Shown piece after piece: positions 6,427-61,296 of a stretch of 64,000 nt of DNA; position 1 is the stretch's first letter, and every line of letters begins with the position of its first letter. This DNA is from Escherichia coli. Lineage in GTDB: Bacteria > Pseudomonadota > Gammaproteobacteria > Enterobacterales > Enterobacteriaceae. The notes under the pieces are model-generated. The model made no database searches. It had not been told where the DNA came from and saw nothing but the letters and a program-made list of their open reading frames with translations. Location: assembly GCF_045037415.1 (NCBI RefSeq), contig NZ_CP173438.1. One strand, written 5' to 3'. A program made the position numbers and the translations under genes.

Positions 6427-6530
6427 GCGGTTGATGCCGGATGCGACGCTTGACGCGTCTTACCGGCCTACTAATTAATGCCGAATCGTAGGCCGGATAA
6501 GGCGTTCACGCCGCATCCGGCCATCAGTAT
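6427..6530. repeat. REP/BIME palindromic elements between convergent malQ and gntT
   Basis: gccggatgcg...cgtcttaccggcctac and gtaggccggataaggcgttcacgccgcatccggcc are typical enterobacterial REP units in opposite orientation. Confidence 0.7.
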
Positions 6531-21512: not shown

Positions 21513-23237
21513 ATGGATAACGTTGAACTTTCACCGGCAACACGCTGGGGGATGATTGCTACCGGATTACTTCAGGGGCTGGTTTGCTACCTGCTGATCG
21601 CCTGGCTTGCCGGAAAAAATCTCAGTTGGATTGTTTATGGCGTGCCTGCGACCGTCGCGTTTTCATCCGTTTTACTCTTCTCCGTGATCTCCTTTAAACA
21701 GAATCGCCTTTGGGGATGGCTGGCGCTGGTGTTTATTGCCACGCTGGGAATGAGCGGCTTGCTGAAGTGGCAAACTGATGGCATGACCCCCTGGAGAGCT
21801 GAAAAGGCGCTTTGGGATTTTGGCTGCTATCTGCTGCTGATGGCAATGTTGTTGCTACCGTGGATACAACAAAGCCTTCGCATCCGCAATGACAGTAGCC
21901 GCTATCGCTACTTTTACCAGTCAGTATGGCATAACGTACTTATATTACTGGTGATTTTTCTCGCCAATGGCCTAACGTGGCTGGTACTTTTACTGTGGAG
22001 TGAGTTGTTTAAACTTGTTGGCATCACGTTTTTCAAAACGCTCTTTTTTGCAACCGACTGGTTTATTTATCTCACGTTAGGTCTGGTTACCGCGCTGGCG
22101 GTGATCCTCGCGCGAACACAGTCACGTTTAATCGACTCTATTCAAAAGTTGTTCACGTTAATCGCCACGGGGTTGCTGCCGTTAGTATCATTGCTAACCC
22201 TGATGTTTATTATCACCCTGCCGTTTACGGGCCTGAGCGCGATTTCTCGCCACATCTCCGCCGCCGGGTTGCTGTTGACGCTGGCCTTTTTGCAATTGAT
22301 CTTAATGGCTATTGTCCGCGATCCGCAAAAAGCGTCACTTCCCTGGACGGGGCCATTGCGTTGCCTGATTAAAACCGCTTTGCTGGTTGCTCCGCTGTAT
22401 GTGTTCGTCGCCGCCTGGGCGTTATGGCTGCGGGTCGCTCAGTACGGCTGGACTGTCGACCGCTTGCAGGGCGCGCTGGCGGTGCTGGTGTTACTGGTAT
22501 GGTCGCTGGGGTATTTTGTCAGTATCGTCTGGCGTAAAGGGCAAAATCCCCTTGATCTTCAGGGCAAAGTGAACCTTGCGGTTTCGTTATTGGTGTTGGT
22601 AATACTGGTGCTTCTTAATTCGCCGGTGCTGGACAGTATGCGCATTAGCGTGAACAGTCATATGGCGCGTTATCAGAGCGGTAAAAACACGCCAGACCAG
22701 GTAACTATCTACATGCTCGAACAGAGCGGTCGCTATGGACGTGCGGCGCTTGAGTCGCTGAAAAGCGATGCCGAGTATATGAAAGACCCGAAACGCGCGC
22801 GGGATCTGCTGATGGCGTTAGATGGAGAGCAACATCTTCAGGAACAGGTATCGGAAAAAGTATTAGCCGATAATGTGTTAATTGCCCCAGGTTCTGGTAA
22901 ACCGGATGCGACATTCTGGTCGGCCTTAATCCAGGATCGCTATAACGTGATGACCTGTATTGAAAAAGACGCCTGCGTACTGGTCGAGCAAGATCTGAAT
23001 AGTGATGGTCAGGCGGAGCGGATCCTGTTTGCTTTTAATGATGACAGAGTCATTGTCTATGGCTTTGACTCAGCCAGAAAAGAATGGGACGCGCTTGATA
23101 TGAGTTTACTTCCGCGCAAAATAACGAAAGAAAAATTACTCACAGCTGCGAAGGATGGAAAACTGGGGACGAGGCCGAAAGCGTGGCGCGATCTGACGGT
23201 AGATGGTGAAACGCTGGAAATAAACTTAAGTAAGTGA
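21513..23237 (+). CDS. yhgE: Inner membrane protein YhgE (function unknown)
   Basis: 574 aa polytopic membrane ORF divergent from pck, matching recalled K-12 yhgE size and position. Confidence 0.85.
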
Positions 23238-23316
23238 CAACGCTTTTAACGGATACGACGCTGTATCTGACCAAAATAACTTGCGATTTATCCGGTGCGC
23301 GGTAAAACCCCGTCCT

Positions 23317-23517
23317 TCAGGGCGGGGATATAAGTTCGCCATCCATTTCAACCCGTTCAGCTTCAAAATCAGCACATACATTTGAAAAGTAAGTGCGTAG
23401 TTTTTCTGTCGCGTCATGGTCAAAAATCTGGCGTTGGTATTTGGCGACAAAGACCAGGTGAACATGCATCAGGAAAACACAATGCCTTCCACGCCGGATA
23501 TCGGTTTCTTTTTTCAT
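23317..23517 (-). pseudogene. tnpA: Truncated IS200/IS605 TnpA (HuH Y1 transposase), N-terminal fragment only
   Basis: 66 aa frame with HVHLVFVAKYQRQIF resembling the TnpA N-terminal motif (YHIVFAPKYRRQ-like); stops before the HuH and catalytic Tyr region; stop codon lies inside the left-end hairpin. Confidence 0.6.
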
Positions 23518-23539
23518 AGACCAAAATATAATTTGACCT

Positions 23540-24748
23540 GTGAAACGACTACAGGCATTTAAATTCCAGTTAAGACCCGGTGGTCAACAGGAGCGTGAAA
23601 TGAGGCGCTTCGCAGGCGCATGTCGTTTCGTTTTCAATCGTGCTCTGGCGCTTCAGAATGAGAATCATGAGGCCGGTAATAAATACATCCCTTACGGGAA
23701 AATGGCTTCCTGGCTGGTTGAGTGGAAAAATGCCACTGAAACGCAATGGCTTAAAGATTCTCCCTCACAGCCATTGCAACAGTCACTGAAAGACCTTGAG
23801 CGGGCTTACAAAAACTTCTTCCAGAAGCGGGCTGCTTTTCCCCGATTCAAAAAGCGGGGACAGAATGATGCATTCCGCTACCCGCAGGGCGTTAAGCTCG
23901 ATCAGGAAAACAGCCGTATTTTTCTGCCGAAACTTGGTTGGATGCGCTACCGGAATAGCCGTCAGGTCACGGGAGTTGTGAAAAATGTCACTGTCAGCCA
24001 GTCCTGCGGTAAGTGGTACATCAGTATTCAGACAGAAAGTGAAGTATCAACTCCGGTTCACCCTTCAGCATCAATGGTCGGGCTGGATGCTGGCGTGGCT
24101 AAACTCGCCACGCTGTCAGATGGCACAGTCTTTGAGCCTGTAAACAGTTTTCAGAAAAACCAGAAGACGCTGGCGAGACTTCAGCGACAGTTAAGCCGCA
24201 AGGTCAAATTCAGCAACAACTGGCAGAAGCAGAAACGCAAAATACAGCGGCTGCATTCCTGTATCGCAAATATCCGCAGGGACTACCTTCACAAAGTCAC
24301 AACGACCGTCAGCAAAAACCACGCAATGATAGTCATTGAGGATTTGAAGGTCAGCAACATGTCAAAGTCAGCAGCGGGTACGGTCAGCCAGCCGGGGCGC
24401 AATGTCCGGGCAAAATCAGGTTTAAACCGTTCGATACTGGATCAGGGCTGGTATGAAATGCGCCGCCAGCTTGAGCACAAGCAGCTCTGGAGTGGCGGTC
24501 AGGTGCTTGCTGTTCCGCCAGCGTACACAAGCCAGCGTTGCGCGTGCTGTGGTCATACAGCGAAAGAAAACCGCCTGTCACAAAGTAAATTCAGATGCCA
24601 GGTATGTGGATATACAGCGAACGCCGATGTAAATGGCGCTCGTAACATTTTAGCGGCGGGGCACGCCGTTCTTGCCTGTGGAGAGATGGTGCAGTCAGGC
24701 CGCCCGTTGAAGCAGGAACCCACCGAAATGATTCAGGCGACAGCCTGA
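23540..24748 (+). CDS. tnpB: TnpB (IS605 OrfB family; RuvC-like RNA-guided endonuclease family), InsQ-like
   Basis: 402 aa, GTG start; RuvC-I (VGLDAGV), RuvC-II (IVIEDLKV), zinc finger (CACCGH...CQVCG), RuvC-III ([10 protein letters not shown]); sequence recalled as IS609 InsQ-like. Confidence 0.88.
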
Positions 24749-24790
24749 ACGTAGCAGGGATCCACGTCCTTCAGGGCGTGGAGGATGTCA

Positions 24791-24830
24791 ATTCATAGGC
24801 CTGGTAAGCGCAGCGCATCAGGCCATTACG
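24791..24830. repeat. REP-like palindromic element next to the IS right end
   Basis: aggcctggtaagcgcagcgcatcaggcc resembles the REP consensus (GCCTGATGCGCT...CAGGCC). Confidence 0.5.
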
Positions 24831-24839
24831 TCGTAAAAT

Positions 24840-24861
24840 CCGGCAGAGTCCTCTCTGCCGG
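24840..24861 (-). terminator. Putative terminator downstream of hslO
   Basis: ccggcagag-tcctct-ctgccgg hairpin immediately after the hslO stop on the minus strand. Confidence 0.45.
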
Positions 24862-24870
24862 ACATACTCA

Positions 24871-25749
24871 TTAATGAACTTGCGGATCTGCCGGAGACGC
24901 GTTGTTGCGGATCTCGGCAATATCCATCGCATTGAACAGATAGTGGTTACCGCAGTAATCACAATGCATGTCAATTTCGCCATCTTCCGCCAGGATGCTA
25001 TCGACTTCTTCATCAGGCAGCGTTTTCAGCGCATCGGCGCAACGTTCACGCGAGCAGGTGCATTTGAACTCCACATCCTGCGGATCGTAAACCGTCACCT
25101 CTTCTTCGTGATACAAACGCCACAACACTTCGTTTGCCGGTAAAGTCAGCAGTTCTTCGGTTTTGATGGTTTCGGTTAGCGTCGCCAGGTGGTCAAAGTC
25201 GTCCTGCTGGGCATTTTGCGCAGGCATTACCTGCAACAACATACCGCCTGCAGCCGGTTTGCCGTCTACGTCGCCGGTGCGAATAAACAGGCGCGTCGGC
25301 AGCTGTTCAGAACGCATAAAGTAATCTTCCAGGCAGGCCGCCAGGGTATCACCTTCCAGACCAACCACGCCCTGATAGCGTTCGCCTTCGCTCGGGGTGA
25401 TGGTGATCACCACGTAACCATTGCCGACCAGCGTTTTCAGGTCGGCATTTTCTGGAATTTCGCCCTGCACGCGCGCCACACCGCGCATCTGCTGGTTGTT
25501 GTTACCGTTAATAACCGCCAGATTCATCGGACCGTCGCCTTGCAGCTGTACGGTGATATCACCATCAAACTTCAACGTAGCGGTTAACAGGCTGGTCGCA
25601 ACCAGCAGTTCTGCCAGCACGTTTTTAACGGGCTGCGGATAATCGTGATTCTCAAGGATCTGTTGCAGGGTTTCCGAAACGGTTACCAGTTCGCCGCGAA
25701 CGGCAAAGTTTTCAAACAGATAGCGATGTAATTGGTCATGTTGCGGCAT
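24871..25749 (-). CDS. hslO: Redox-regulated chaperone Hsp33
   Basis: Start trimmed to [15 protein letters not shown] (292 aa); C-terminal zinc centre CxC...CxxC. Confidence 0.94.
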
Positions 25750-29935: not shown

Positions 29936-30060
29936 TGCGTGAAGTTTACCTGATGCATAATGCTTATCAGGCTTACGAAGTTCCTGCAATTTATTGAATT
30001 TTCAATTTTTTGTTGGCCGGATAACGCGTTCACCCGCATCCGGCATAAACAAGTGCACTT
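29936..30060. repeat. REP/BIME elements between nudE and mrcA
   Basis: gccggataacgcgttcacccgcatccggc and gcataatgcttatcaggc palindromic units. Confidence 0.65.
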
Positions 30061-61230: not shown

Positions 61231-61296
61231 ATAAGACGCATCAGGCAAAAGATGTCGGATGCGGCGTGAACACCTCATCCGATGGTTTAGCCTGTA

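Follow-up and report, generated by a model that had tools for sequence, protein, structure and literature searches.

An immobile IS609 copy next to hslO of Escherichia coli is probably an ordinary TTAT insertion within an older, decayed BIME

We found that the IS200/IS605-type element between yhgE and hslO in this E. coli chromosome is a defective IS609 copy located at a TTAT tetranucleotide inside what appears to be a decayed BIME, an event of an already-known kind that gives no sign of a new mechanism. Very probably, this was an ordinary IS609 insertion at TTAT in a decayed BIME that was there beforehand, with no involvement of the neighbouring REP and no change to the cis-elements of hslO. 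All coordinates refer to the window, the whole stretch of 64,000 nucleotides that was analysed, and the features are collected in the table.

The locus has the order pck-yhgE-IS609-hslO-hslR, and 2.1 kb of it (23000-25100) was 100% identical to strain SK1144 and others. The RefSeq annotation of SK1144 lists yhgE, a transposase pseudogene, insQ (RNA-guided endonuclease, InsQ/TnpB family) and hslO. Reading along the + strand, the right-end hairpin is followed by the end of the IS, the trinucleotide TTC, the ATAG tag and the REP palindrome, beyond which come 14 nt, the hslO hairpin, 8 nt and the hslO stop codon. This stacked order was described by the sequence-only reading on which our analysis follows up, and all four parts were found at the claimed place; their identities, as an IS200/IS605-type right-end hairpin, a REP, an hslO hairpin and a stop codon, were also right. 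In the yhgE-hslO spacer the REP is extragenic, lying between two stop codons. The genes tnpB and hslO are convergent, and their stop codons are 122 nt apart.

Table. Features of the yhgE-hslO region in window coordinates
Feature	Position	Strand	Description and basis
yhgE	21513..23237	+	DUF4153 membrane protein; convergent with hslO; ORF list and SK1144 RefSeq annotation
Degenerate y-type inverted REP (iREP)	23250..23272	+	CGGATACGACGCTGTATCTGACC; aligned to GCCGGATGCG...TTATCCGGCC in three genuine BIMEs
TTAT target/cleavage tetranucleotide, putative TnpB TAM	23288..23291	+	Empty versus filled allele; four other IS609 loci
IS609 copy (IS200/IS605 family)	23292..24791	+	1500 bp, no target-site duplication, non-autonomous
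Left-end subterminal hairpin	23308..23327	+	CCCCGTCC-TTCA-GGGCGGGG; direct repeat of the right-end hairpin; fold computed
tnpA remnant	23317..23517	-	66-aa ORF; partial Pfam Y1_Tnp match, alignments with full-length TnpA; pseudogene in SK1144
tnpB / insQ	23540..24748	+	402 aa, intact RNA-guided endonuclease gene; Pfam and structure matches
Putative omega/reRNA scaffold	24621..24791	+	Overlaps the tnpB 3′ end and the right end; sub-threshold Rfam matches
Right-end subterminal hairpin	24761..24782	+	UCCACGUCC-UUCA-GGGCGUGGA; 9-bp stem, UUCA tetraloop; fold computed
Putative 16-nt guide	24792..24807	+	TTCATAGGCCTGGTAA; 3-nt linker, ATAG and REP 5′ stem; by analogy with ISDra2
z1-like REP	24795..24824	+	ATAG tag (24795-24798) and imperfect hairpin GGCCTGGT/ATCAGGCC (24798-24824)
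hslO 3′ hairpin and UUUU, probable intrinsic terminator	24835..24862	-	10-bp GC-rich perfect stem (24839-24862); U4 at 24838-24835
hslO (Hsp33)	24871..25749	-	ORF list and SK1144 annotation; stop codon 24871-24873

The limits of the element were set from the empty allele of strain AR_0013 and from four IS609 copies at unrelated E. coli loci (a TetR-family gene next to ytfB, the yeaR-yeaQ region, a DUF3251 gene near nrdR, and ydcL-ydcO of K-12). The empty allele reads GATTTAT directly joined to TTCATAGG. In the filled allele, GATTTAT is joined to CCGGTGCG at the left, and GGATGTCAA is joined to the same TTCATAGG at the right, with no duplication of the target. All four of the other loci had TTAT followed by CCGGTGCGC at the left junction and GGATGTCAA followed by unrelated flanking DNA at the right junction, and TTAT was found directly 5′ of the left end at five independent E. 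coli IS609 loci. Insertion 3′ of a target tetranucleotide without duplication is a hallmark of the IS200/IS605 'peel and paste' pathway (PMC8612924). The element was 97-98% identical to copies at other loci that are annotated as IS609, IS200/IS605-like.

The left-end hairpin and positions 24762-24781 of the right-end hairpin are direct repeats of each other with 90% identity, and terminal inverted repeats are absent. The right-end hairpin had a computed energy of -15.4 kcal/mol (z -2.85), with 3 of 200 shuffles as stable. GC skew was positive on the + strand of the window in 7 of 8 bins (cumulative +0.28), from which we infer that the top strand of the IS lies on the lagging-strand template, as expected for IS200/IS605 elements (PMC8612924). 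The 22-nt right-end motif TTCAGGGCGTGGAGGATGTCAA was exactly matched in the genomes of four distant species, Desulfopila, Paractinoplanes, Citrobacter amalonaticus and Parasutterella muris, in a motif search of genome contigs; these 4 loci are too small a set to gauge association with REPs. The Parasutterella copy of the motif forms a perfect 15-bp palindrome, and the Citrobacter copy lies 3′ of TTAC rather than TTAT. In the literature, we found survey-type mentions of IS609 that do not cover its mechanism, and a preprint on IS608 TnpB that does not include IS609.

We then compared empty and filled alleles in a set of 5426 E. coli genomes. The undivided 74-nt junction was present in 575 complete genomes at identities from 100% to 94.7%, many of them at 100%, and the filled allele was present in 549 complete genomes (~10%), including an O25b:H4 strain. 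Because the REP is base-for-base identical in the uninterrupted allele of AR_0013 and lies outside the limits of the IS, it is clearly older than the IS609 insertion. Some empty alleles might in principle have arisen by precise excision, in which case the REP would still be outside the IS. The suggested tie between the REP and the IS or a RAYT was thus not borne out by the very comparison that the sequence-only reading had proposed.

We distinguished at least three alleles of the spacer between yhgE and hslO: a K-12 type of 62 bp that retains only AGCGCATCAGG, which is half a REP; a 133/134-bp degenerate BIME; and a 137-bp type that keeps GTAG and has a shortened REP loop. Together, they illustrate on a small scale how a BIME decays and turns over between two convergent genes. 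No REP feature is annotated in this spacer in K-12. Strain 8178 and K-12-type strains were considered as sources of the empty site and rejected, since they carry the different, 62-bp allele with half a REP. That allele alone would wrongly suggest that the REP had arrived with the IS; the true long empty allele was retrieved with a chimeric flank query.

Several lines of evidence identified the palindrome as a REP of the z1 type. Its sequence is GGCCTGGT-AAGCGCAGCGC-ATCAGGCC, an imperfect palindrome whose stem contains a G.T / A.C mismatch. The palindrome as quoted in the sequence-only reading, AGGCCTGGTAAGCGCAGCGCATCAGGCC (24797-24824), had a computed energy of -15.7 kcal/mol (z -4.03), and none of 200 shuffles was as stable. 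On the minus strand it reads GCCTGATGCGCTGCGCTTACCAGGCCTAT and agrees at 26 of 29 positions with the z1 REP consensus of the Bachellier/Gilson nomenclature; no match to this consensus was found in 100 shuffles of the window. A 30-mer comprising TTAT and the first half of the REP was found, at a stringent cut-off, in 5425 of the 5426 genomes at a median of 5 and a maximum of 14 places per genome, and of the two places that were inspected, one was a genuine REP of the deoC-deoA BIME and the other a genuine REP of the pepE-proximal BIME-1.

The REP also appears to have BIME-like surroundings. The spacer aligned across iREP, linker and REP with the BIMEs of deoC-deoA, pepE and window positions ~29950-30060. 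The decayed iREP forms a weak hairpin (z -1.8), and in the alignment AATAACTTGCGATTTAT followed by TTC corresponds to a shortened L-type linker that is interrupted by IS609. Judging from this alignment, the uninterrupted spacer would be a degenerate BIME-1-like unit, with IS609 within its linker. The tetranucleotide tag of the REP varies, being ATAG in the window and in AR_0013, ACAG in RM9131 and GTAG only in the allele of HM670. Elsewhere in the window, we noticed a y/z2-type pair at 6436-6525, a REP pair at ~61237-61280, and a BIME-1 at 29966-30048 with the IHF-site-like L linker AAATTCAATAAATTGCAG.

Next, we examined the state of the transposase gene. About 250 bp of tnpA are deleted at the junction of positions 23334 and 23335, directly inside the left-end hairpin, and both ends and tnpB have been spared. 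The remnant covers only positions 1-49 of the 121 positions of the Pfam Y1_Tnp profile and corresponds to residues 6-66 of the full-length 143-aa TnpA in both protein and DNA alignments, with 88% amino-acid identity to IS609 TnpA. In the alignment to full-length TnpA, the HuH motif (HVH, residues 69-71) and the catalytic tyrosine (SPGYF) are both absent from the remnant. The string MHVHLVF within it was considered as a HuH motif and rejected, the real HVH 69-71 being deleted according to that alignment. The same deletion was common to the top matches among the 549 filled genomes, which aligned in a single piece at 100% identity. Judged from these alignments, tnpA is dead and the copy is a non-autonomous IS609 derivative, the element type still being IS609 by DNA identity.

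The enzymatic kinship raised by the sequence-only reading is correct: the Y1 transposases of the IS200/IS605 family have relatives in the RAYT/TnpA_REP enzymes, which are associated with REPs (PMC3333891, PMC2817692). Given the homology of the HuH Y1 enzymes IS200/IS605 TnpA and TnpA_REP, and the likeness of REPs to the subterminal hairpins of ISs (PMC3333891), the IS transposase or a host RAYT might act on the REP, which would then owe its creation, relocation or processing to the same event as the IS end. We regard this explanation as hardly credible. It is opposed by the identity of the REP in uninterrupted alleles, outside the IS limits, and by a tnpA that has lost the HuH motif and the tyrosine. 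Furthermore, the REP hairpin (GGCCTGGT.../...ATCAGGCC) and the IS hairpins (CCACGTCC-TTCA-GGGCGTGG) have no sequence similarity, and the remnant is of IS609 type and flanked by IS end hairpins rather than by REPs, so it is not a RAYT/REPtron. The tag also argues against it, being ATAG and not GTAG. The GTAG tetranucleotide is required by TnpA_REP, the E. coli RAYT, for binding and cleavage, and both were abolished when GTAG was mutated to ACGA (PMC3333891); that published mutant is not the single G-to-A change seen here. The homology between TnpA and RAYT is real but explains nothing at this locus: no sequence is common to the REP and the IS hairpins, tnpA is inactive and the REP tag is mutated.

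A different question is whether a REP or BIME could have directed the insertion. Extruded REP hairpins or stalled forks might expose a single-stranded TTAT, which would make the adjacency mechanistic. IS200/IS605 elements do require single-stranded targets (PMC8612924, PMC5027513), the insertion lies inside a BIME-like linker only 3 nt from the REP tag, and the BIME-1 linker at pepE also has TTAT at the homologous position. We consider this explanation very unlikely. REPs were absent from the flanks of the four other E. coli IS609 loci and from the right-end flanks of the four related elements in other species, and at two of the other loci, in the TetR-family gene and the DUF3251 gene, the element interrupts a coding sequence. 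Altogether, eight of the nine inspected insertions were not near a REP; the nine were made up of five different IS609 loci of E. coli and one element from each of four other species, a sample that leaves room for a mild preference for BIME linkers. One REP-adjacent insertion in nine is unremarkable and compatible with chance, by our estimate rather than by a computed statistic. Chance adjacency is plausible because hundreds of REPs (584 in K-12; PMC3333891) lie in dispensable intergenic DNA. TTAT alone accounts for the insertion site, and these loci give no support for an event directed by a REP or RAYT.

The effect on hslO was the other suggestion to be weighed. The hslO hairpin, TCCGGCAGAG-TCCT-CTCTGCCGGA, had a computed energy of -22.3 kcal/mol on the hslO strand (z -6.6), and none of 200 shuffles was as stable. 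It begins 8 nt past the stop codon and is followed by a T-run of only 4, and hence was not called by a strict terminator scan. The stem was invariant in all 7 alleles compared, and the loop base at 24849 was T/C polymorphic across strains, including among empty alleles. An hslO transcript would meet, in order, the stop codon, 8 nt, the hairpin, UUUU, 10 nt, the REP, 6 nt and the IS. The 79 nt that separate the hslO stop from the IS match the empty allele at every position but loop base 24849; the cis-elements for the hslO 3′ end are therefore untouched, and only read-through RNA would differ. An effect of the IS on hslO 3′ ends is unlikely, because a transcript from hslO would pass the probable terminator hairpin and the REP, both unchanged, before it reached the element. 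For the same reason, the proposal that the stacked hairpins alter hslO 3′-end formation found no support from the sequence comparison.

The gene that the insertion does separate from these structures is the convergent yhgE: 1.5 kb now lie between its 3′ end and the REP with the hairpin, and its read-through would enter the IS. A weak terminator-like site, GCCGGATATCGGT followed by TTCTTTTTTC, is present on the + strand at 23493-23515, just upstream of the start of tnpB, and could limit read-through from yhgE into tnpB.

The insertion might nevertheless alter its convergent neighbours, if tnpB or omega RNA transcription ran into the REP, the hairpin and the 3′ end of hslO, or if hslO read-through antisense to tnpB occurred, with consequences for the ends or stability of hslO mRNA. 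The short distance between the convergent tnpB and hslO stop codons would allow this, as would the short U-tract of hslO; on the + strand no T-run follows the hairpin, so + transcripts may enter hslO. Against it, an hslO transcript reaches the hairpin, U-tract and REP, all of them unchanged, before the IS, yhgE is already convergent into the same hairpin in the empty allele, and a promoter scan did not find a strong sigma-70 promoter for tnpB. We therefore consider such an effect improbable and retain the reading of an ordinary insertion that left the hslO signals as they were.

In contrast to tnpA, tnpB is intact. TnpB contains the Pfam domains OrfB_IS605, Cas12f1-like TNB (zinc-ribbon) and HTH (E 1.8e-34, 4.2e-23 and 3.9e-14, respectively) and matched the structures of ISDra2 TnpB (8exa/8h1j) with E 1.6e-53. 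On visual inspection, we recognised the acidic residues of RuvC as well as two CxxC pairs. Over 24621-24801, Rfam models matched at scores all far below threshold: HgcC at 23.6 bits (E 0.015; gathering 50), sot0042 at 17 (gathering 88) and RAGATH-18 at 25.4 (gathering 44.9). RAGATH-18 is associated with tnpB 3′ ends. HgcC and sotRNAs are tied to tnpB 3′ ends and are linked by a UUCA-tetraloop hairpin, and a tnpB 3′-end transcript of this sort has been reported in E. coli K-12 (PMC4615843). The right-end hairpin is of the same UUCA-loop type as that of HgcC and sotRNAs.

The RNA of ISDra2 TnpB comprises the tnpB 3′ end, the right end and a guide of ~16 nt from the flank, and the TAM equals the transposon target (PMC8612924). 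By analogy, the intact TnpB would carry an omega/reRNA with a scaffold that runs to 24791 and a guide of ~16 nt, TTCATAGGCCTGGTAA, and TTAT would be the TAM. TTAT followed by TTCATAGGCCTGGTAA is exactly the uninterrupted allele, and a guide that matches the empty site follows the known retention or homing logic of TnpB and is not new (PMC10055086). Ten of the 16 guide bases belong to the REP stem. In the predicted fold, transcripts extending at least 33 nt past the right end would draw guide bases into the REP hairpin. Within the window, no TTAT-flanked match to the guide with five or fewer mismatches was found. Outside it, the BIME-1 upstream of pepE in EDL933 (positions 148-185 of the retrieved locus) contains TTAT followed by CTGGTAGGCCTGGTAA, which matches the guide at 13 of 16 positions; the TTAT in this linker lies three bases before GTAGGCCTGGTAAGCG and is homologous in position to the IS609 target. 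This near-cognate BIME is present in 2688 of 5426 genomes.

These features raise the possibility that a REP-derived guide has unusual consequences, with the REP hairpin modulating TnpB, or near-cognate or allele-specific targeting, or both. If so, the REP hairpin, as a known barrier to 3′ exonucleases, might block trimming or sequester guide nt 7-16, and TnpB would be silenced or modulated. The guide could also have near-cognate TTAT-flanked sites in other BIME-1 linkers such as that of pepE, and it could direct TnpB, as a nuclease specific for one allele, to the uninterrupted yhgE-hslO allele carried by ~10% of E. coli; recombination would then be biased in a lineage to which an O25b:H4 strain belongs. 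We judge this quite improbable.

Together, the observations are consistent with the following course of events under the reading of an ordinary insertion. IS609 would have entered the lagging-strand template by single-strand 'peel and paste', directly 3′ of TTAT and with no target duplication. This tetranucleotide probably belonged to the short linker of an ancient, degenerate repeat of BIME-1-like type, made up of a decayed iREP, the linker and a z1-like REP. As a result, the left end of the IS abuts the decayed iREP and linker, and the right end lies 3 nt from the ATAG tag of the REP. The REP itself lies 14 nt from the hairpin that, with its U4, would end hslO, and the row of hairpins would be an incidental by-product of where TTAT happened to be. 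After insertion, the loss of ~250 bp of tnpA would have left an immobile copy, which would then have been inherited vertically as a marker now found in ~10% of complete E. coli genomes.

The finding carries little weight beyond bookkeeping, namely the exact limits and the TTAT target of one IS609 copy, which serves as a marker of ~10% of complete E. coli genomes. The neighbouring REP appears to be part of an older, decaying BIME that is unlinked to the IS, and the polarity is corrected in that yhgE, not hslO, is separated from its 3′ structures. Of wider interest, by analogy with other TnpB systems, may be a natural TnpB guide taken from repeated REP sequence, which could offer a handle on omega-RNA 3′-end maturation and guide specificity.

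The copy most closely resembles IS609 of E. coli, a member of the IS605 group with divergent tnpA and tnpB/insQ, sharing 97-98% nucleotide identity, the same ends with TTCA-loop hairpins, the TTAT target and a 402-aa tnpB. It differs in having lost the catalytic half of tnpA (~250 bp) and in its position in the yhgE-hslO spacer. In the K-12 copy at ydcL-ydcO, tnpA is also annotated as a pseudogene. With IS608 of H. pylori and ISDra2 of D. radiodurans it shares a target 5′ of the left end, subterminal hairpins and a lagging-strand bias; with ISDra2 it also shares a homologous TnpB (E 1.6e-53) and an expected origin of the guide in the DNA 3′ of the right end. As in IS608, TCAA forms the last bases of the right end. 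Unlike in those elements, the target is TTAT, not TTAC or TTGAT, and the omega RNA and TAM of IS609 are putative.

The REP resembles the z1 REPs and BIME-1 of E. coli, as named by Bachellier-Gilson and Ton-Hoang, in its imperfect palindrome with a stem mismatch, its extragenic position between convergent genes, its multi-copy nature, and its apparent pairing with an inverted y-type unit and an L-linker-like spacer. It differs from them in that the tag is ATAG rather than GTAG, the iREP and linker show strong decay, and the linker lacks most of its IHF-site portion. Elements that target REPs or BIMEs are known, namely IS1397 and ISKpn1 of the IS3 family, and IS621 and other IS110-family elements; these recognise the REP or BIME sequence itself and recur in such sites. 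The copy described here resembles them in being an IS inside a BIME, whereas IS609 recognises TTAT, and eight of the nine inspected insertions lie away from REPs.
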